Position numbers and translations under genes: made by a program
Part shown: positions 1,140 through 10,148 of the stretch, piece after piece
Position numbering within the stretch: position 1 is the stretch's first letter
Layout of the letters: each line of letters opens with the position of its first letter
Notes under the pieces: model-generated
The model's database searches: none
What the model saw: the letters and a program-made list of their open reading frames with translations, nothing else
What the model was told of the DNA's origin: nothing
DNA from: an uncultured bacterium
GTDB taxonomy: Bacteria > Lernaellota > Lernaellaia > Lernaellales > Lernaellaceae
DNA length: 13,436 nucleotides
Assembly: GCA_964534375.1 (NCBI GenBank)
Contig: CAZHPN010000166.1
Coordinates: 1 to 13,436 of the forward strand
Reading direction: 5' to 3'

Positions 1140-2180
1140 ATGCGCTTCATCGACGAAACGACGATTACGGTCATCTCCGGCGACGGCGGCAACGGCTGCA
1201 TGTCGTTCCGGCGCGAGATGTATCGCCCGCGCGGCGGCCCCGACGGCGGCGACGGCGGCAAGGGCGGCGATGTCGTCTTCGTCGCCGACAACGCCAAGCA
1301 AACGCTCAACGACCTCGCCTACAAGCCGCTCTACCGCGCCAAGCGCGGCGTGCACGGCAAGGGCAGCGACCTGCACGGCCGCGCCGCGCCGGACCTGCGC
1401 GTCCACGTGCCCGCCGGCGTGATCGTCTACGACGCCGACACGGGCGAACAGCTCACCGACCTCGACCAGCCGGGCGTCGAGTGGATCGCCGCCAAAGGCG
1501 GACGCGGCGGCCGCGGCAACGCGCGGTTTCTGTCCAACGCCAACAAGGCCCCGACGCGCCACGATCCGGGCGAGGCGGGCCAGACGCGGCGGCTGCGGCT
1601 GGTGCTCAAGACCCTGGCGGACGTCGGCCTGGTCGGGTTTCCGTCGGCGGGCAAGTCGTCGTTGATCGGCGCGATTTCCGCGGCGCATCCGAAGGTCGCG
1701 TCGTATCCGTTCACGACCTTGAAGCCCAACCTCGGCGCCGTCGACCTCGACATCAATCGCCGCTTCATCGTCGCCGACATCCCCGGCATCATCGAGGGCG
1801 CGCACCATGGCGCCGGTTTGGGCCAGCGGTTCTTGAAGCACATCGAACGCACGCGCCTGCTGCTGCACATCCTCGACCTCGACCCGCAGACCGGCCGCGA
1901 TCCGATCGCCGATTTCGACAAGCTCAATATTGAACTCGCCGCCTTCAGCGAAGCGCTCGGCCGCCGGCCGCAGTTGATCGTCGCGAACAAGATCGACCTG
2001 CCCGACGCCGCCGAGAACCTCGCACGCGTGCGCGCCGAAATGGCGCAACGCGGCCTGACGTTCCTGCCGATCAGCGCCAAAGAGGGCCTGGGGATCGTCG
2101 AACTGCTCGCCGCGCTCGGCGCCGCGCTCGACGAAACGGGCCGGGCGGAAAAGGCGGCGGAGACCAAGGAGGAACCGTGA
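1140..2180 (+). CDS. obgE: GTPase ObgE/CgtA (346 aa, no C-terminal OCT domain)
   Basis: Gly-rich Obg fold (GDGGNGCMSFRRE..PRGGPDGGDGGKGG); G1 GFPSAGKS, G2 YPFTT, G3 DIPG, G4 NKID, G5 ISA. Confidence 0.98.
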   Translation: MRFIDETTITVISGDGGNGCMSFRREMYRPRGGPDGGDGGKGGDVVFVADNAKQTLNDLAYKPLYRAKRGVHGKGSDLHGRAAPDLRVHVPAGVIVYDADTGEQLTDLDQPGVEWIAAKGGRGGRGNARFLSNANKAPTRHDPGEAGQTRRLRLVLKTLADVGLVGFPSAGKSSLIGAISAAHPKVASYPFTTLKPNLGAVDLDINRRFIVADIPGIIEGAHHGAGLGQRFLKHIERTRLLLHILDLDPQTGRDPIADFDKLNIELAAFSEALGRRPQLIVANKIDLPDAAENLARVRAEMAQRGLTFLPISAKEGLGIVELLAALGAALDETGRAEKAAETKEEP

Positions 2181-3250
2181 ACTATGCCGTCATGATGGCC
2201 GGCGGGGCCGGCACGCGCTTCTGGCCGCTCAGCCGGCAGACGTTGCCCAAACAACTGCTGCCCATCGGCGACGACCAAACGTTGCTCGCGCGCGCGATCG
2301 GCCGCGTCGCGCCGCTCGCGCCGGCCGCCCGCGTGCTGATCGTCACCGGCGAGGCCATCGCCGCGCCGATCGCCGCCGCGTTCCCCGAGGTGCCGGCGGC
2401 CAATATCATCGCCGAGCCGCTGCGCCGCAACACCGCGCCGTGCGCCGCCGTCGCGGCGAAGATCCTGCTGGACCGCGACCCCGACGCGGTCATGGCGCTG
2501 CTGCCTGCCGATCACGTCATTCGCAAAGAAGACGAACTGCGTACGCTGCTGGCCGCAGCGTTCGCGGTCGCCGCGCGCTCCGACGAATTGCTCACGCTCG
2601 GCGTCAAACCGCAGTATCCGGAAACCGGCTACGGTTACATCGAAACCGGCGACCCCTTGGACGAGGAAAACAGCCGGCCGTATTTCCGCGTCGCCGCCTT
2701 TCACGAGAAACCCGACGCCGCGACCGCGCAGCATTTTCTCGACAGCGGCCGGTTCCTGTGGAACGCGGGCATCTTCGTGTTTCGCGCGTCGGTGTTCTTG
2801 CGCGCGGTGGCGGCGGCGATGCCGGATCTCGCGGCGGCCGTCGCCGAAATCGACGGCTGCGCGCCGCCGGAAAAAATCGGCGCGGCGCTGGCGCGACTGT
2901 ATCCGGCGCTCGCGCCGACTAGCATCGACCACGGCGTGATGGAAAAGGTGAGAAACATTTTGGTCTTTCCCGCCGATATCGGCTGGAGCGACGTCGGCTC
3001 GTGGACCGCGTTGCGCGAACTGCACCCGGCCGACCCGCACGGCAACGTCGGCCAAGGCGACTTCCTCGCGCTCGACGGCGGCGAGAACACGTTCTATGCG
3101 CAGGGCGGCGTGGCGGTCGCGGTCGGCGTCGAGGGGCTGATCATCGTGCATACGCCCGACGCGACGCTCGTCGCGCGGCGCGACGACGCGCAGGGCGTGA
3201 AGCGCGTGTTCGAAGAGTTCGAACGACGGGGATGGAAGAAATACTTGTGA
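2177..3250 (+). CDS. manC: Mannose-1-phosphate guanylyltransferase (monofunctional, no C-terminal cupin PMI domain)
   Basis: Motifs MAGGAGTRFWPLSR..PKQ, EPLRRNTAP, PADH, ETGYGYI, FHEKPD, WNAGIF, SIDHGVME, WSDVGSW; GTG start overlaps the obgE stop (GTGA). Confidence 0.92.
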   Translation: MNYAVMMAGGAGTRFWPLSRQTLPKQLLPIGDDQTLLARAIGRVAPLAPAARVLIVTGEAIAAPIAAAFPEVPAANIIAEPLRRNTAPCAAVAAKILLDRDPDAVMALLPADHVIRKEDELRTLLAAAFAVAARSDELLTLGVKPQYPETGYGYIETGDPLDEENSRPYFRVAAFHEKPDAATAQHFLDSGRFLWNAGIFVFRASVFLRAVAAAMPDLAAAVAEIDGCAPPEKIGAALARLYPALAPTSIDHGVMEKVRNILVFPADIGWSDVGSWTALRELHPADPHGNVGQGDFLALDGGENTFYAQGGVAVAVGVEGLIIVHTPDATLVARRDDAQGVKRVFEEFERRGWKKYL

Positions 3251-3262
3251 TGTTTTTGGTTA

Positions 3263-3290
3263 ACCGCAGATTACGCCGATTTGCGCAGAT
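3263..3290 (+). repeat. Left inverted repeat, three degenerate CGCAGATT-type units
   Basis: accgcagattacgccgatttgcgcagat; matches the reverse complement of 3845-3872 at 25/28 positions. Confidence 0.9.
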
Positions 3291-3295
3291 CTGCG

Positions 3296-3332
3296 CGCGC
3301 CAAATGTCGTCGCGGCGCCGACGTTTGGCGCG
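3296..3332. repeat. 14-bp stem-loop upstream of the GxxExxY gene
   Basis: cgcgccaaatgtcg (3296-3309) pairs with cgacgtttggcgcg (3319-3332), one G-U pair. Confidence 0.75.
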
Positions 3333-3346
3333 GACAGCGTGATTTC

Positions 3347-3748
3347 GTGACAGCGCCGAACGAAAGAGATCCGCGTACGTACGCGATCATCGGCGCCGCG
3401 ATGGAGGTTCATAGGCGGTTGGGTCGTGGATTTTTGGAGGCCGTTTACCAGGCTGCCTTGGCGCGAGAACTGACAGCGCGGGGGATTCCCTTTCGTCGCG
3501 AAGTGGAACTCCCTGTTTTTTATCGCGGAGAGCCTTTGGAGGCGAAATACCGGGTCGATTTTATTTGCTATGATGACGTGATTGTCGAACTCAAGGCCAG
3601 CGCGAGCGTCACAGCCGCCGATGAGGCGCAGCTTATCAACTACTTGCGGGCTGGCAGCAAAACGGTCGGGTTGCTTCTTCATTTTGGCGGCCCAAGTCTT
3701 GAACATCGCAGATATGCGTTCACGCCGTCGTCGCCGCCGGCGTTTTGA
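3347..3748 (+). CDS. GxxExxY protein (PD-(D/E)XK nuclease superfamily), about 133 aa
   Basis: IIGAAMEVHRRLGRGFLEAVY (GxxExxY), YRVDFICYDDVIVELKA (D..ExK), AQLINYL, GLLLHFG; GTG at 3347 chosen over the ORF-track start at 3281, which lies inside the repeat. Confidence 0.93.
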   Translation: MTAPNERDPRTYAIIGAAMEVHRRLGRGFLEAVYQAALARELTARGIPFRREVELPVFYRGEPLEAKYRVDFICYDDVIVELKASASVTAADEAQLINYLRAGSKTVGLLLHFGGPSLEHRRYAFTPSSPPAF

Positions 3749-3789
3749 CGCAAAGGAAAGGCCGATGTTGCCCGCAGTTTCGCAGAGAT

Positions 3790-3839
3790 GCCCGGATCGG
3801 CCGAGTTGCGCGCAATCGCGCAACTCGGCCGATCCGGGC
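3790..3839. repeat. Perfect 23-bp hairpin with a 4-nt loop (CAAT)
   Basis: gcccggatcggccgagttgcgcg / cgcgcaactcggccgatccgggc are exact reverse complements; no U-tract directly after it. Confidence 0.95.
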
Positions 3840-3844
3840 GAATT

Positions 3845-3872
3845 ATCTGCGGTAATCTGCGTAATCTGCGGT
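3845..3872 (-). repeat. Right inverted repeat of the GxxExxY element
   Basis: atctgcggtaatctgcgtaatctgcggt, followed by an A-run up to the namZ ATG. Confidence 0.9.
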
Positions 3873-3880
3873 AAAAAAAA

Positions 3881-5005
3881 ATGACCACCACGACAGTGCA
3901 ACCTGGCTGCATCGAGTTGCTCGACCGCGCGGCGGAACTGCTCGGCGGCGCGCGCGTCGGCCTGCTCGCGCACCAGGCCTCGATCCTGCCCGACCTGTCC
4001 TATTTGCCCGATCGCCTGCTCGATCATCCGGCCGTGCGGCTCGTCGCGCTGTTCGGTCCGGAGCACGGCCTCGCCGGCGCGGCGCAGGATCAGGTGGGCG
4101 TCGGCCGCTCCGTTTACCGCGGCGCGCCCGTCTGCTCGCTCTACGGCAAAACCGAGGCCGATCTGCAGCCGACGCCGGAGTCGCTTGCCGGCATCGACAC
4201 GCTGGTTGTCGATCTGCAAGACGTCGGCGCGCGCTATTACACCTTCATCTACACGATGGCCTATTGCCTCGAGGCCTGCGCGGCGGCGGGCAAGCGCGTC
4301 ATCGTGTGCGATCGGCCGAATCCGCTCAACGGCGTCGCCGTCGAAGGGCCCGTGCTCGAGCCGGCGTTCGCGTCGTTCGTCGGCCGTTTTCCGCTGCCGG
4401 TGCGGCACGGCAAAACCATCGGCGAACTAGCCCGGCAATGGAACCGCGAGCAGGGCTGGAACGCCGAGCTGCTCGTGCTGCCGTGCTCCGGCTGGGATCG
4501 CCGGATGTGGTTCGACGAAACCGGCCTGCCGTGGGCGCCGCCCAGCCCGAACATGCCGACGCTCGACACGGCGACCGTGTACCCCGGCGGCTGCCTGGTC
4601 GAAGGAACGAATTTGTCGGAAGGCCGCGGCACGACGCGCCCGTTCGAAATCGCCGGCGCGCCGTGGCTCGACGGCCGCGCGCTCGCCGCCGAACTCAACG
4701 CCCTCGCCCTGCCCGGCGTACATTTCCGGCCGATTTCGTTCGTGCCGACGTTTCACAAATTCGCGGCCCGGACCTGCGAAGGCGTATTCGTGCACGTCGT
4801 CGACCGCGACGCCTTCCGCCCGTTCGACGCCTACCTGCATCTGATCGCCGCCGCCCGCCGCCAGAGCCGCCGCGACTTCGCCTGGCGCACCGAGCCCTAC
4901 GAATTCGTCAGCGATCGGCTGGCGTTCGATCTCCTCTGCGGCACGGATCGCATTCGGCGGGAAATCGAAGCCGCAACGGCGTTCAAGAATGATTTGTCGG
5001 ATTGA
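3881..5005 (+). CDS. namZ: Exo-beta-N-acetylmuramidase NamZ family (DUF1343), no signal peptide, C-terminus appears short
   Basis: Motifs LFGPEHG, SLYG, DLQDVGARYYTFIYTM, DRPNPLNG, LPVRHGKTIGELA, PSPNMPT, EGTNLSEGRGTTRPFE.GAPW. Confidence 0.92.
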   Translation: MTTTTVQPGCIELLDRAAELLGGARVGLLAHQASILPDLSYLPDRLLDHPAVRLVALFGPEHGLAGAAQDQVGVGRSVYRGAPVCSLYGKTEADLQPTPESLAGIDTLVVDLQDVGARYYTFIYTMAYCLEACAAAGKRVIVCDRPNPLNGVAVEGPVLEPAFASFVGRFPLPVRHGKTIGELARQWNREQGWNAELLVLPCSGWDRRMWFDETGLPWAPPSPNMPTLDTATVYPGGCLVEGTNLSEGRGTTRPFEIAGAPWLDGRALAAELNALALPGVHFRPISFVPTFHKFAARTCEGVFVHVVDRDAFRPFDAYLHLIAAARRQSRRDFAWRTEPYEFVSDRLAFDLLCGTDRIRREIEAATAFKNDLSD

Positions 5006-5315: not shown

Positions 5316-7463
5316 TCACGGCCCCGAAAAATGCAGAATCTCGGCGTATTCACCCACGGCGAACACGTCGTTGGGCGCCGTTCCCGCAACGGCGTAGAGC
5401 GGCATGTCGCCGCTATTGGCGATCGATGACCACGTTGACCCGTCGTAGTGCAAGATCAAGCTGGGCTCGTTGAAACCGGCCACCGTGCCCACGGCAAACA
5501 CGTCTGTCGGCGAATCGCCCCAAATCGCGTACAAAACTGTCGGATTCGGCCCCGGGTTCCACTCTTCCGTCCACGCATTTCCGTCGTAGTGAACGATCGT
5601 CGAATATTCGGGATACGCGGCCGTCGCCGCGTAAACGTCCGACGATGAAAAGCCCCAAAGGCTCAAGATATATGCGCCTGGCGCGACGGTCGTCGTCGAC
5701 CAGCTCGACCCGTCCCAGCGCCAAACCGCCTCGTACGCGCCCGCGAAGATGTCCGATGGCGAACTGCCCCAAAGAGCTTGGAAAATCGACCCGTCAGGCG
5801 CGATGGCGGACCAGGTGGAGCCGTCATAGTGCAACAGACCGCCATTGGGGGCGTACCCGGTTGCGTACACATCCGACGCGGAAAATCCCCATACTGCAAA
5901 CAGCGCCTGTGTCGCGGGCGTGCTCATCGTTTCCCACTGTTCGCCGTCATAGTGATAGATCGCGCCTGGACCCGGGTTCGGGACTATGAACACCCCGCCG
6001 ACGGCGAACACATCCGACGGCGAATCGCCCCAAATGGCGTTCAGTGGCGCCGTTTCCCGGATGCCGGTCGCCGTCAGCGACCATGAAGAGCCGTCGTAAT
6101 GGGAAATGGCGCCGGGGCCGTAATCCTCGCCCGCGGCCACGGCGAAAACGTCGGAAGGCGACGCGGCCCATACGCCGTGCAAGCCGCACAAGGCGAAAGT
6201 CGTGATCTCGCTGGAAATCGTCGACCACGTTGCCCCATCATAATGATTGATCACCCCCGGCGCGCCCACCGCGAAAACATCGGAAGGCGAACTTCCCCAG
6301 ATACGGTTGAGCCCGCCGTCCATCGGCTGGCCGGCCCAAACCACGGACCACGCCGTTCCATCGTAGTGCACGATCGTCTGGCCGCCCTCGCCCGGGTTCC
6401 AATTGTTTGCCGCGACGAACACGTCGGACGATGAGCTTCCCCAAATGCCGCTGAGCGCGTATCCCGCGAAACTGGCCGTTTGCGCCCACGAAGAGCCGTC
6501 AAAGTGCGAAATCATCGAAACGCCCGGGGCGGGACGATAGGAGAACGAAAGGGCAAAAACATCCGCGGGCGACGCGCCCCAAATGTCCTCGACAGTGGTG
6601 CTGGACGCTTGCCCGCTGATCATCGGCGACCACGATTTCCCGTCATAGTGATAGATCGCCCCCTGGTCGCCGCCGGCGAAAACGTCGGCGGACGACGCGC
6701 CCCAAATCGAGTAAAGGTTTGCGCCCTGCCACATCGCCTTCCATGAGGTTCCGTTGTAATGGACAATGTTGTTCATGCCCAAGCCGACGGCGAATACGTC
6801 CGTGGCCGAGGCGCCCCAAACGCCGTACAAATCGTCGGTGGCGGGGCTTGCCATCGGCGCCCATGACGACCCGTCATAATGAAATATCACGCCGGAGACG
6901 GAGTCGGCCGCGAAATCCAAAAGCGTCCCGACGACAAACACGTCCGCGGGCGAACTTCCCCAGACCCCGTACAGGGTCGCGACCGTCCCGCTCGCCATCG
7001 CCGTCCACGCGGAACCGTTGAAATGCAAAACCGTGCCGATGTCGCCCACGGCAAAAACGTCCGCCGGCGAATCGCTCCAGACGGCCTTCAGGTAGTTGCC
7101 CAGCGGCAAGGGATTTTGCCAGCACCACCCGGTCGGGCTGCAACCGGCGCTGATGTCGTCGTCGTTGTCGTCGTCGTCATTGTTGTCGTTGTCATTGTCG
7201 TTGTCATTATCGTCGTTGTCGTCATCATTATCGTCGTTGTCGTTGTCATCGTCATTATCGTCGTTGTCGTCATCGTCGCCGGTCGGCGAAGAGTCGTCAT
7301 CCCCGGCGGGCGATTGATCGTCATTGTCGTCATCGTCGATCGGCGGCGCCGGCGTATTGTCGATCGTCCGTTTCGCCCGGCTGCCGGCGCCGCCGCAGGC
7401 CGCCGCCGCCGCGAGGATCACGGTCAACAAAAGAGCAGCAACCAACAGCCGAAAACCTTTCAT
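5316..7463 (-). CDS. Lipoprotein with an Asp/Asn-rich linker and 14 WGxSxxDVFAVG...HYDGxxW repeats (probable tandem beta-propellers)
   Basis: MKGFRLLVAALLLTVILAAAAA-C lipobox-like signal; long D/N tract; 14 repeats of about 40-50 aa counted by eye; ATG at 7463 is preceded by GGGGGCGGTG (alternative start 7475). Confidence 0.85.
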   Translation of the reverse strand: MKGFRLLVAALLLTVILAAAAACGGAGSRAKRTIDNTPAPPIDDDDNDDQSPAGDDDSSPTGDDDDNDDNDDDNDNDDNDDDNDDNDNDNDNDNNDDDDNDDDISAGCSPTGWCWQNPLPLGNYLKAVWSDSPADVFAVGDIGTVLHFNGSAWTAMASGTVATLYGVWGSSPADVFVVGTLLDFAADSVSGVIFHYDGSSWAPMASPATDDLYGVWGASATDVFAVGLGMNNIVHYNGTSWKAMWQGANLYSIWGASSADVFAGGDQGAIYHYDGKSWSPMISGQASSTTVEDIWGASPADVFALSFSYRPAPGVSMISHFDGSSWAQTASFAGYALSGIWGSSSSDVFVAANNWNPGEGGQTIVHYDGTAWSVVWAGQPMDGGLNRIWGSSPSDVFAVGAPGVINHYDGATWSTISSEITTFALCGLHGVWAASPSDVFAVAAGEDYGPGAISHYDGSSWSLTATGIRETAPLNAIWGDSPSDVFAVGGVFIVPNPGPGAIYHYDGEQWETMSTPATQALFAVWGFSASDVYATGYAPNGGLLHYDGSTWSAIAPDGSIFQALWGSSPSDIFAGAYEAVWRWDGSSWSTTTVAPGAYILSLWGFSSSDVYAATAAYPEYSTIVHYDGNAWTEEWNPGPNPTVLYAIWGDSPTDVFAVGTVAGFNEPSLILHYDGSTWSSIANSGDMPLYAVAGTAPNDVFAVGEYAEILHFSGP
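7155..7339 (-). repeat. Imperfect GAY/AAY triplet repeat encoding the poly-Asp/Asn linker
   Basis: Runs of tcg/ttg/tca triplets on the + strand; protein DDDDNDDQSPAGDDDSSPTGDDDDNDDNDDDNDNDD... Confidence 0.9.
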
Positions 7464-7545
7464 CACCGCCCCCATTCGCGCCGGGCAACCCGCGCGGGCA
7501 TGTCAAATGCGCCGTCGCCGCAAGTCCATTTCGCTCTGTTGTTTC

Positions 7546-7731: not shown

Positions 7732-9573
7732 ATGATTTGCCGGCACAGCTTGTTGGGCGGTTTCCGGATGCGGGCGGCGTGCTGTCTGCTCACGGCGTCG
7801 GCGTTGGTCGCGGCGTTCGCCTCGGCCGCGGCGGCGCAGGAGCAGCAGAAGTTCGCCGCGGCGTTGTTTCACTGCAACTTGCAATACGTGGAGGGCGGCA
7901 CGCTCGGCATGCTGCCGCTGCCCGGGTTGCTCAACGTCTTTCCGAATTGGGAGCAAGGCAACAACGCGATCGAGGACATGATCATCGAGCGCAGCTTCGA
8001 GCCGCTGCTCGACCTCTATGCCAAACACCCGACGTGGGGCCTCGACATCGAGATGGAGAGCTACTACCTCGAAGTGCTGGCGGCGCGCCACCCGACGGTG
8101 CTGGCGAAGCTCATCCAGTTGATCCAAAACAACCAGGCGGAGGTCATCAGCTTTCACTATTCCGCGCAGTTCTTCCTCGCCTACGGCCGCACCGCCTGGG
8201 ACCATTCGGTCGCCGAGGTGAAAGCCGATTTCACGGAATACGGCGTGCCGCTGTCCGACGTCGTCTTCGCGCAGGAGGGCCAGTCGGGCATGGGCATGGC
8301 GACGGCGATGGCGGCCAACGGCTACAAGCACATGGTGTGGCCGAAAAATCTTTGGATCTACCAGCACGGCTCGTTCACGCCGGCGCCGCTGTACGCCTTC
8401 GGCAATCTGGATATGGTTCCGGCGCCGCTCGACATCAATTACAACAACGGCCAATTGCAGCTCACGTGGACCTACCTCGACGACCAGGAAATCTGGGCGA
8501 CGAACGGCATCGACCCCTATTTCCCGCCGTTTTTCATCACCTGCCAGAGCTGCATCGACGCCTATGAAACGCAACTGGAGCAGCTTGAGACGAACGGCTA
8601 CAAGATCGCGCGCGTGACCGATTACATCGCCGCCGTGAACGCCCTGAACATCGCGCCGGCCGCGCCGCCGCCGCTGTTCGACGGCACGTGGCAACCGAGT
8701 TCGACCGACGGCGTTCATCGCTGGCTCGGCGGCCTCGGCACGCTCTTTTTCGAGTCCGACGGCGAGCGCGACAACCACGTCCACACGCTCAATGAAATCG
8801 CCTTCCGCGAGTTGCAGGCGGCCGAGACCATCGCCACGGTCGCGGGTTTGTCGGTCGCCGACGAGATCGACGTCTTGTGGCATTTGCTCAACCTCGGCAT
8901 GGGCAGCGACGCGACGGGCGTCAACCCCATCGGCAGCGAGGCCGGCTTCGGCATTTCGCACGCCGCCGAGGTCGCGCGGCGCGCCCGCGAAATCATCGAG
9001 GAGGGCAAAACGAAGCTGGGCCTGACGACCGCGGCGATCGACATCGCCGCCGGAACCGCCGTCGCCGGAACCGCGCCGGCCGAGCCGCCGATCGTGGCCA
9101 GCGGCCCGGTCGAGCCGCAAATCGACGTCACCGGCCGCGTGGCGACCTCGACCTGGCGCCAGTCTGCCGACAACCCGCAGCTCTGGCGGTTGGACATCGG
9201 CTTCAGCGCCGGCGCCAACCGCACGATTGCGGTCACGTTCCCCGGGACCTCGACGGAGGTCGTCTTCACCCACGCCCTGGTCGACAACGAACCGGTCATC
9301 TTCAACCGTTCGGATTTCACCTTCGACCACTGGTGGATGCCGCTGCCCAACGGCATGCTCAATCTCGACGACGACCTGTTCGTCATCGCCGATCTGAGCA
9401 TGGTCCACGTCGCCGCCAAGATCGTCCTGACCGACGGCTCGGCGACGTTCCAGGATGACACCGCCACCGTCGATTCGGCCATCAACTGGCGCTTCTACTT
9501 CCTGCGCGGCACGCCCGCCGACGCCCTCGCTTTCGCCAACGGCCTGAACATCCAGCCCACGCTGGTTCGGTAA
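7732..9573 (+). CDS. Secreted GH57-like glycoside hydrolase with an uncharacterised beta-rich C-terminal region
   Basis: Signal peptide ending in AAAA-Q; ALFHCNLQY resembles GH57 region 1 of the archaeal alpha-galactosidase group (recalled as LVFHGNLQY); IIERSFEPLL, EVISFHYS and FAQE fall where the GH57 conserved regions and nucleophile Glu are expected. Confidence 0.65.
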   Translation: MICRHSLLGGFRMRAACCLLTASALVAAFASAAAAQEQQKFAAALFHCNLQYVEGGTLGMLPLPGLLNVFPNWEQGNNAIEDMIIERSFEPLLDLYAKHPTWGLDIEMESYYLEVLAARHPTVLAKLIQLIQNNQAEVISFHYSAQFFLAYGRTAWDHSVAEVKADFTEYGVPLSDVVFAQEGQSGMGMATAMAANGYKHMVWPKNLWIYQHGSFTPAPLYAFGNLDMVPAPLDINYNNGQLQLTWTYLDDQEIWATNGIDPYFPPFFITCQSCIDAYETQLEQLETNGYKIARVTDYIAAVNALNIAPAAPPPLFDGTWQPSSTDGVHRWLGGLGTLFFESDGERDNHVHTLNEIAFRELQAAETIATVAGLSVADEIDVLWHLLNLGMGSDATGVNPIGSEAGFGISHAAEVARRAREIIEEGKTKLGLTTAAIDIAAGTAVAGTAPAEPPIVASGPVEPQIDVTGRVATSTWRQSADNPQLWRLDIGFSAGANRTIAVTFPGTSTEVVFTHALVDNEPVIFNRSDFTFDHWWMPLPNGMLNLDDDLFVIADLSMVHVAAKIVLTDGSATFQDDTATVDSAINWRFYFLRGTPADALAFANGLNIQPTLVR

Positions 9574-9584
9574 GGAGGCCCGCC

Positions 9585-10148
9585 ATGCACCGCCGATTCC
9601 TGCTGCTCCTCGTGCTGTTGACGCTCGCTTTCGCCGCGGCGCTCGCCTGCCAAAGCGCGAGCAGCAGTTCGTCCAGCCATCACGCCGAACCGACGCCCTC
9701 CGACGACGACGACGACGACGATTCCTCGCCGGCCGCCGATGACGACGCCTCGCCGGGCGTCATGCGCGTCTTCGACGCGGTGTTCGAGTTTCGCAATAAC
9801 TGCCACATCGTTTGGTACGAGAGCGGCGACACGCTTGCCAACGCCACCGTGCAATGCGGCAAAGGCTACGGCGACGATTTGATCGCGGCCGGCGTGACCA
9901 TGAGCGCCAGCGGCAGCGTGCTGCGCTTCCCCGAGGCGTTCCACGAAATTCACACGTTGACGTTCCAAAGCCCGCCGATCGCCGGCGGCCCGTGCGGCGC
10001 CCAACCCATCCAGTTGGCGATGTCGCTCAGCGGCCAGCAGGGCGTGGCCGAGCGCTTCGGCGGCATCGCCGCCTACTGCGGCGCGACCATCACCGGCACG
10101 CCGGCGCGCATCCTGCGGCTCGTCACGCACTGGGGGCATCCGGAATAA
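9585..10148 (+). CDS. Hypothetical lipoprotein with a Ser/Asp-rich linker (187 aa)
   Basis: Strong SD aaggagg; MHRRFLLLLVLLTLAFAAALA-C lipobox; poly-Ser and poly-Asp linker; four further Cys in the mature domain. Confidence 0.8.
   Translation: MHRRFLLLLVLLTLAFAAALACQSASSSSSSHHAEPTPSDDDDDDDSSPAADDDASPGVMRVFDAVFEFRNNCHIVWYESGDTLANATVQCGKGYGDDLIAAGVTMSASGSVLRFPEAFHEIHTLTFQSPPIAGGPCGAQPIQLAMSLSGQQGVAERFGGIAAYCGATITGTPARILRLVTHWGHPE

Follow-up and report, generated by a model that had tools for sequence, protein, structure and literature searches.

A hairpin-bounded GxxExxY nuclease cassette at the manC-namZ junction of a Lernaellota bacterium

Introduction

In the genome of an uncultured Lernaellota bacterium, a manC-like gene and namZ are separated by an insert of ~630 bp (positions 3251-3880), whose sole gene encodes a nuclease of the GxxExxY family and which carries no transposase. 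What is this insert, and how does such a gene come to lie between two host genes? We analyzed the insert within a stretch of 13,436 nt (contig CAZHPN010000166.1 of assembly GCA_964534375.1; hereafter the window), within the 6.3-Mb genome from which the window derives (the source genome), and at homologous loci elsewhere. We read the insert as a horizontally moving, hairpin-bounded GxxExxY cassette, i.e., a nuclease gene in the loop of a cognate inverted repeat (IR) built of tandem units, and we put the probability of this reading at roughly 60%. The GxxExxY family is numerous, with 5434 relatives at E <= 1e-5 in a single word-limited search. In the available portion of a classification paper the function of PDDEXK_3 is given as 'Unknown' (PMC3424549), and in that of another paper GxxExxY is named only in passing (PMC8934634).

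Results

Anatomy of the insert

The insert is bounded by two inverted arms, each an array of a 9-10-nt unit, here CRCAGATT. Its parts and the two host genes are as follows.

2177-3250, + strand: manC-like mannose-1-phosphate guanylyltransferase gene, the upstream host gene, with stop codon TGA at 3248-3250
3253-3257, + strand: T5 run outside the left arm, pairing with the A-run in the predicted stem
3263-3290, + strand: left arm of three tandem units (CGCAGAT 3265-3271, degenerate CGCCGAT 3274-3280, CGCAGAT 3284-3290)
3291-3337, + strand: imperfect palindrome between the left arm and the open reading frame (ORF), with 23-nt arms that are 83% complementary; one copy in the genome
3347-3748, + strand: GxxExxY / PDDEXK_3 nuclease gene, 133 aa from an inferred start at GTG 3347 (the longest ORF runs from TTG 3281)
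3790-3839, no strand assigned: perfect palindrome of 23 bp (loop of 4 nt) located past the ORF stop and ahead of the right arm; one copy in the genome
3845-3872, + strand: right arm of three reverse-complement tandem units (ATCTGCG 3845-3851, 3855-3861, and 3864-3870)
3873-3880, + strand: A8 run abutting the namZ start codon
3881-5005, + strand: namZ (exo-beta-N-acetylmuramidase), the downstream host gene

Over 44 nt, the outer arms (3247-3290 and 3845-3888) are 80% complementary, and the inner 28 nt (3263-3290 and 3845-3872) match at 25 of 28 positions by manual count. GC content is 0.535-0.62 within the insert, compared to 0.64-0.735 in the flanks. An ATG at 3250-3252 overlaps the manC stop, and the namZ start (ATG 3881-3883) has no Shine-Dalgarno sequence in front, while AAGGAGG is present at manC and at the ORF beginning at 9585. 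The stop/ATG overlap, the T5 and A8 runs, the 25/28 match of the arms, and the missing Shine-Dalgarno sequence at namZ, together with the description of the insert as an IR-bounded element of lower GC whose only gene is the nuclease, had been listed in a preliminary description of the window, and they are read as such in the sequence. The identity of the host genes rests on Pfam matches to NTP_transferase (E 1.3e-38) and ManC_GMP_beta-helix for the manC-like ORF, whose match to the NCBIfam model GMP_PMI lies below that model's cut-off, and to NamZ_N (E 6.5e-75) and NamZ_C (E 5.4e-46) for namZ. The arms have counterparts elsewhere in the source genome: the exact 12-mer around the first arm unit occurs 13 times, and TTTTTG ... 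CAAAAA-like borders are seen on many hairpins. The two internal palindromes are not dispersed repeats and are without counterpart in the nearest homologous cassette (L065). Searched against Rfam at E <= 1, the window gave no rRNA and no known RNA family, only weak matches of microRNA models to the palindromes.

Matching arms flank GxxExxY genes in more than 10 phyla

We surveyed the 80 best homologous loci in species-representative genomes, 79 of which have both flanks. At least two CRCAGAT units upstream and at least two reverse-complement units downstream were present at 63 of the 79 loci, compared to 0/79 in a reversed-sequence control, and 72/79 had at least one CRCAGAT-type unit on each side. 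The proteins are 54-70% identical, and their hosts represent more than 10 phyla, among them Acidobacteriota, Planctomycetota, Verrucomicrobiota, Chloroflexota, Methylomirabilota, Nitrospirota, Pseudomonadota, Bacteroidota, and Hydrogenedentota, as well as a Thermoplasmatota archaeon. Typical cassette ends read ATC|CRCAGATT ... AATCTGYG|GAT. Many of the homologous ORFs (loci L166-L245) run into the right arm, their KSAxSA/SVKSA-like tails being AAATCTGCG... read as codons; thus, the right arm forms part of the 3' end of the gene. The best non-self homologues of the window protein (65-72% identity) come from other phyla, and none of the 111 other GxxExxY loci lies beside manC or namZ.

Paired arms are equally regular nearer the source. 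GxxExxY genes occur in 5 of the 17 genomes of the class (which equals the phylum in this sample), and all 10 intact loci of the source genome and the class have inverted tandem-unit arms, of seven unit types as judged by eye. In five other genomes, arms were found at 16 of 16 loci, one of them degenerate, and unit type followed protein type. Paired arms of the CGCAGATT type at other GxxExxY loci, as forecast in the preliminary description, are therefore borne out. The source genome itself has two further GxxExxY copies, one on contig C16 between CGCGAATGCA arms, for which no closer relatives were found among the 17 genomes of the phylum, and one on contig C43 (C43:18873-18998, L003) with GACGCAGAG/CACGGAGGA-type arms. 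The C43 gene is cut off after ~43 profile positions by a variant of a nested ~215-bp element described below. In genome G042 (C1:3352731-3353958; L258, L260, and L263), three identical GxxExxY cassettes are repeated in tandem every 443 bp, each having CRCAGAT arms of its own.

Unit type follows the protein tree, and the two arms co-vary

A protein tree was built from 41 of the 104 collected loci, after 10 without a unit call had been dropped and 53 of the 75 CRCAGAT rows had been subsampled out; the CRCAGAT rows kept were 20 taken at random plus the window protein and L065. Three clades have support: one joins CRCAGAT to its sister CGCGAAT, one comprises the '...AG' units, and one unites CACGGAT and ACAGGAT. 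The CRCAGAT label required 4 changes on the tree, compared to a mean of 13.9 after shuffling (0/500 shuffles as low), and all unit labels together required 15 changes versus 18.8 (0/200 as low). Clades contain a mixture of host phyla, that of CRCAGAT drawing on many (Planctomycetota, Acidobacteriota, Verrucomicrobiota, Chloroflexota, Nitrospirota, Pseudomonadota, Bacteroidota, and one archaeon). These results show that unit type tracks the protein tree and not host taxonomy.

We then compared the two arms in 69 of the 79 loci (IR score of at least 16), taking position counts from the subset with at least two cores in the aligned arm. Core positions were complementary between arms in 980 of 1022 cases and spacer positions between cores in 196 of 278. 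The variable R position was concordant between the arms in 116 of 145 pairs, with 89 expected (nominal Fisher p = 5e-8). Arm mismatches comprised 55 G.T/T.G and 62 A.C/C.A pairs (p = 0.58). Thus, both the unit sequence and the complementarity of the arms are kept, and the lack of a G.U bias gives no indication that sense RNA is the selected form. All of these arm figures overstate, because the arm alignment was picked for maximal matches and the loci are related. Altogether, our data show that the gene is inherited, and moves between genomes and phyla, as a single unit with its arms, that conservation of the unit sequence goes hand in hand with the protein subfamily, and that the two arms co-vary.

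The GxxExxY protein

The insert protein matches Pfam PF13366 PDDEXK_3 (E 2.9e-38, 131.3 bits, cut-off 22) and NCBIfam TIGR04256 GxxExxY (E 6.8e-40, 136.1 bits, cut-off 35). Nine residues invariant in a 27-sequence alignment that includes the window protein (E20, G28, E31, Y34, D71, E81, Q95, N98, and Y99) are all present, as is the near-invariant K83; judged from sequence, D71 and E81-x-K83 are the predicted catalytic-type residues and appear intact. An AlphaFold2 model (predicted local distance difference test score 89.8) has the predicted alpha-beta-beta-beta-alpha-beta core of the PD-(D/E)XK fold. The best Foldseek match of this model in the PDB is Cas4 SSO0001 (4ic1; E 5.4e-4, TM 0.57), followed by RecE/lambda exonuclease, AddAB nuclease domains, and Hjc (2wiw/1gef, E 0.01-0.02). 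A sequence search of the PDB gave no match at E <= 1. A PADLOC search matched the Cas4b hidden Markov model only (E 0.004), without membership in a defence system, and a PHROGs search matched one family, of unknown function.

The manC-namZ junction exists in three states

The preliminary description had explained the insert as an element inserted exactly into a TGATG stop/start overlap with duplication of ATG, whose RNA ends pair so that the insert is looped out or excised and manC-namZ coupling is restored. Deletion of 3253-3883 does yield TGATG. The relatives without the gene have a different junction. Among the family-level relatives, G001 is the only one in which manC adjoins namZ, and there the junction reads TGA, a plain 10-nt spacer, and ATG; the other five have a different gene upstream of namZ. 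The manC stop of G001 is also overlapped by an out-of-frame ATG by chance, so a stop/ATG overlap arises easily. The closest relative found, metagenome contig L089 (NamZ 80% and ManC 75% identical), carries at this junction a hairpin that encloses no gene: its CGCAGATT arms are 30 nt long and 83% complementary, its loop measures 11 nt, and its ends read ATCC...GGAT. This hairpin is preceded by TGA and then TAG and followed after 24 nt by a GTG start. The proposed ancestral overlap is thereby contradicted. Three bases are literally shared between the two ends of the insert, so the ATG repeat itself stands, but its reading as a target duplication does not, since L089 is without it; nor is any short duplication visible by eye next to the arms at 63 homologous loci, where the same description had expected one. 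Both the TGATG overlap and the 'ATG duplication' have arisen by coincidence.

One orthologous site is thus found as a gene cassette (window), a solo hairpin (L089), and an empty junction (G001). Two histories are conceivable: the L089 lineage lost the gene from its cassette, or the window lineage acquired the gene in a hairpin that was already there. Four public runs were also examined; DNA run X2 contains the whole stretch unchanged, and X4 contains pieces of it. A lone contig joining 3188 to 3952 with 2242 other letters between was rejected, one side being 21 nt long and the contig pointing to another organism or a repeat.

Position, transcription, and RNA folding

Cassettes sit tightly between stop and start codons, in agreement with the preliminary description: the first unit lies a median of 10 nt after the upstream stop, and the next start lies a median of 21.5 nt past the last unit (n = 32 each; crude ORF calls). 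Among the 71 loci examined, a same-strand neighbour lay upstream at 26 of 30 callable loci and downstream at 26 of 34. Within the insert of the window, no promoter-like or + strand terminator-like site was found. The GTG start of manC overlaps the stop codon of obg (ORFs 1140-2180 and 2177-3250; overlap 2177-2180), so obg, manC, the cassette, and namZ look like a single operon. Farther downstream, the ORFs at 5316-7475 (- strand), 7732-9573 (+), and 9585-10148 (+) match no Pfam or NCBIfam family, or have sub-threshold Pfam matches only (DUF6087 and Rax2).

Folding of 3235-3900 as RNA closed the outer stem (-311.4 kcal/mol, z = -9.2 versus 20 shuffles), and the source genome encodes RNase III; RNA processing is therefore possible. 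RNA-library contigs from two studies (X8 and X9) cover 3584-3734 and 3606-3775 without any difference from the window, which establishes presence in RNA libraries and carries no information on RNA ends, expression level, or the uncovered parts. The predicted stem, the encoded RNase III, and the close spacing of cassettes to stop and start codons all fit the model of a looped-out or excised insert. The junctions of G001 and L089, the missing duplications at other loci, and the mismatch counts do not. A mere stem would not need its unit sequence conserved across phyla, and RNA pairing as the selected function is not supported. To our knowledge, moreover, there is no mechanism that rejoins an mRNA after RNase III cleavage. 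We therefore consider insertion into TGATG with restored coupling a very unlikely account of the locus.

Gene-less hairpins share the arms of the cassettes

A scan of the source genome identified ~83 IR loci with internally periodic arms, mostly with loops of 30-150 nt and no gene. Their unit families include CGCGAATGCA, TGGGARTTC, AAGGAA, GGATCAACA, CACAGAG, and CRCAGATT. Gene-bearing and gene-less hairpins have arms in common and differ in their loops. The source genome has one CRCAGAT-type gene copy and at least 25 cognate solo hairpins; the figures that follow are counts of unit doublets. In four genomes with a CRCAGAT-type gene, CRCAGAT doublets numbered 117, 184, 84, and 26. GCCAAG doublets numbered 108 in G043, the sole genome with that type (two genes), versus 1-27 elsewhere and 3-10 for controls, and CACAAAG doublets numbered 16 in G045 (one such gene), 4 in G044, and 0 elsewhere. 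Across the 17 genomes of the class, GCAGATT doublets numbered 34 in the source genome (G000), 14 in G009, 6 in G016, and at most 1 in the other 14, while CGCGAATG-type doublets numbered 114 in G000, 18 in G006, and 11 in G004. Altogether, matching units recur often in hairpins without a gene, for the most part in genomes that also have the corresponding gene.

The same arm design encloses a second gene family. PF05635 (23S-rRNA-IVS protein, where IVS denotes an intervening sequence) has eight matches in the source genome, and all five above the cut-off, as well as the match on contig C98, lie between inverted tandem-unit arms; the remaining two matches are weak, with unclear arms. The six loci (L078-L083) are as follows.

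C6:28648-28962, PF05635 locus
C72:2045-2341, PF05635 locus
C291:1862-2158, PF05635 locus
C14:46055-46354, PF05635 locus
C42:14920-15216, PF05635 locus
C98:15954-16199, PF05635 locus

Their arm units differ per locus and include GGTTCCG, CAGTAG, GAACAGC, AAGGAA, ATGCGGA, and ATGGGAC. The copy on contig C42 has an internal TGA.

Hairpins of this abundance could be host repeats, or independent ones of the simple sequence repeat (SSR) or short tandemly repeated repetitive (STRR) type, in whose loops GxxExxY and PF05635 ORFs happen to survive best, so that the arms would not belong to the gene's mobile unit. Such lodging would fit the gene-less hairpin of L089 at the same site, the ratio of ~83 hairpin loci to 3 GxxExxY and 8 PF05635 loci in the source genome, the sharing of one arm design by two unrelated cargo families, the hairpins of G004 and G009 that have no matching gene, and the convergent heptamer pairs of Xanthomonas, for which the available text reports no cargo (PMC4692102). 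It would not lead one to expect the same unit with the same protein clade in more than 10 phyla (63/79 loci), and at many homologues the right arm belongs to the 3' end of the gene. On balance, we regard chance lodging as unlikely.

A different relation of gene to hairpin would be homing, in which the nuclease cuts gene-less cognate hairpins, for example as extruded cruciforms, and repair copies the gene into the loop with the arms as homology. The three states at one site, the common arms and different loops of gene-bearing and gene-less hairpins, and the modelled kinship of the fold to Cas4/RecB-type nucleases and Hjc resolvases are all in line with homing. Homing, however, sits poorly with a source genome that has one CRCAGAT-type gene despite at least 25 cognate solo hairpins, and the copies in G042 are tandem, not dispersed. 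We think it unlikely that the cassette arose in this way.

Nested elements and Y1 transposases

Some hairpins have travelled inside a larger element. An element of ~215 bp is present in 11 near-identical copies in the source genome (L076; e.g., contig C33 ~14230-14450, - strand, and contig C55 ~29640-29860, + strand). The outer ends of this element are fixed, and it includes a short hairpin at the 5' side, one with CGCAGATT arms in the interior, and a GC hairpin at the 3' side. To the left, the flanking sequence is always (C/A)TCTGTAC-like; to the right, it resumes with TCTG(T/C)G. Given these flanks, the element appears to be a parasite that has settled within right arms of CACAGAG/CACAGAT-type hairpins. 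There is also a second, older family, with at least 14 copies, about half of which have the same outer ends as the ~215-bp element and carry the CGCAGATT hairpin inside. The pattern of subterminal hairpins and a conserved left-flank target is one that we take to be IS200/IS605-like.

This pattern brings in the possibility that a Y1 (RAYT / IS200-type) transposase moves the hairpins in the manner of REPINs, with GxxExxY as a passenger. The source genome has seven Y1_Tnp matches, and many CGCAGATT hairpins lie inside the presumably IS200/IS605-like element. Nevertheless, at the three full-length Y1_Tnp genes the flanking repeats are palindromes of other kinds and not tandem-unit arms, and the window cassette is without the outer ends of the ~215-bp element. 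Mobilization by a Y1 transposase is thus hardly credible as the origin of the cassette.

Discussion

We favor the reading of the insert as a horizontally moving GxxExxY cassette with cognate arms, which is carried by the recurrence of matched arms across phyla, the agreement of unit type with the protein tree, and the co-variation of the two arms. Several observations weigh against it. The arm design may be set by the host and not by the cargo, because the unrelated PF05635 family uses the same design. Co-inheritance alone would likewise make unit type follow the protein tree, and related loci are not independent, so that the p-values overstate. When IR strength was compared with a mismatched-flank control, the median was 21 versus 14.5 in the control, and 12 of 79 loci exceeded the control's 99th percentile; as the loci share arm sequence, we replaced this control with the reversed-sequence unit count. 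Gene and doublets do not always coincide: G041 has a CRCAGAT-type gene, in a single cassette with degenerate arms, and 0 doublets; the 14 GCAGATT doublets of G009 accompany only CACGGAG-type genes; and G004, with its 11 CGCGAATG-like doublets, has no PF13366 match. Part of the spread of CGCAGATT hairpins is owed to another vehicle and need not involve GxxExxY, since copies of these hairpins are nested in the ~215-bp element. To this may be added the lack of visible target-site duplications at the 63 loci and the fact that in the four public runs there was no empty-site/insertion polymorphism and no contig joining manC to namZ without the insert.

How might such a cassette work? The nuclease would bind its own units, probably several copies at once on hairpin or cruciform DNA, and would cut there, driving the copying or loss of the cassette and of its gene-less derivatives. 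We consider the chances evenly balanced that the enzyme recognizes its own units on folded DNA and acts on them in this way. As for expression, the cassette gene would lack a promoter of its own and depend on transcription from the host operon, with the long stem of the transcript as a plausible RNase III site; read-through combined with RNase III cleavage of the stem is possible, although we lean slightly toward doubting it. Still more tentatively, a new class of hairpin elements could have the GxxExxY proteins as its cognate enzymes; each subfamily would read its own 7-10-nt unit, arrayed in the inverted arms, and cut folded DNA to copy or remove the element, with ORF-bearing rRNA IVSs as an rRNA-resident branch of the class and S23p/PF05635 as alternative cargo.

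For a numerous family of unknown function, the link between subfamily and unit supplies a hypothesis that is testable as protein-DNA recognition. If true, this link explains the intergenic hairpins, hundreds per genome in many phyla, that are now filed as simple repeats. Tandem-unit hairpins shape operon spacers beside start codons. The findings also bear on the origin of rRNA IVSs, as genes of the IVS protein family outside rRNA have arms of the same design, and an rRNA-resident branch, if true, would explain that origin. Small nucleases with programmable-looking 9-10-nt recognition units may also serve as tools.

Comparison with known systems

One system of like anatomy is that of the ORF-bearing IVSs of 23S rRNA in Coxiella, Leptospira, Xanthomonas, and Brucella, which carry an S23p / PF05635 gene, as given in the available part of a review (PMC4990558). 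In the Coxiella IVS described there, a terminal stem of 28 bp encloses an S23p ORF; RNase III cuts this IVS, whose origin is called 'unclear'. The window cassette shares with such IVSs a small ORF in the loop of a ~28-bp terminal IR stem, GC below that of the host, and a sporadic distribution from which horizontal transfer is inferred (PMC4990558, same part). It differs in lying in the intercistronic spacer of an mRNA between protein genes and not in an rRNA helix, in encoding a PD-(D/E)XK nuclease and not a four-helix-bundle protein, and in having arms that are arrays of a conserved 9-10-nt unit. The analogy with rRNA IVSs drawn in the preliminary description thus holds for the enclosing stem, and for PF05635 genes with the same arm design, but not for location, the insert not being in rRNA.

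With REPIN/RAYT systems, as described in the available parts of PMC3116915 and PMC3337134, the cassettes share a usually low-copy gene flanked by its cognate palindromic repeat, with many gene-less copies (G041, G009, and G004 being exceptions). Unlike RAYTs, the cassette enzyme is a PD-(D/E)XK nuclease and not a Y1/HUH tyrosine transposase, the arms are tandem-unit arrays, and the Y1 genes of the source genome have different repeats. Moreover, the cassettes cross phyla freely, whereas REPIN-RAYT inheritance is described in those parts as mostly vertical (PMC3116915, PMC3337134).

Heptameric SSRs (GGGAATC of Xanthomonas and GGGGAYT / STRR of Nostoc) are likewise short tandem units in intergenic positions, and GGGAATC repeats form 70-75 inverted pairs per genome able to adopt stem-loops or cruciforms (Rehm et al., PMC4692102, available text). 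No enclosed gene is reported in that text, in which 'hypothetical protein' occurs 0 times, and the cassette units differ from heptamers in measuring 9-10 nt and in following the nuclease subfamily. Miniature inverted-repeat transposable elements and insertion sequences resemble the cassettes in their terminal IRs, gene-less derivatives, and intergenic location; the cassettes differ in having no transposase family, no target-site duplication seen, and internally repetitive arms. As for the enzyme, the modelled fold is common to the GxxExxY protein and the Cas4, RecB-family, and Hjc-type PD-(D/E)XK nucleases, from which it differs in its length of only 133 aa without further domains and in a gene that, in the window, does not adjoin CRISPR or repair genes.

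In the published literature, supplementary files aside, we found no description of a gene-plus-arms cassette. The cassette family is very widespread and apparently undescribed, and it is best read as resembling both REPIN/RAYT systems and IVSs in design while being a member of neither.

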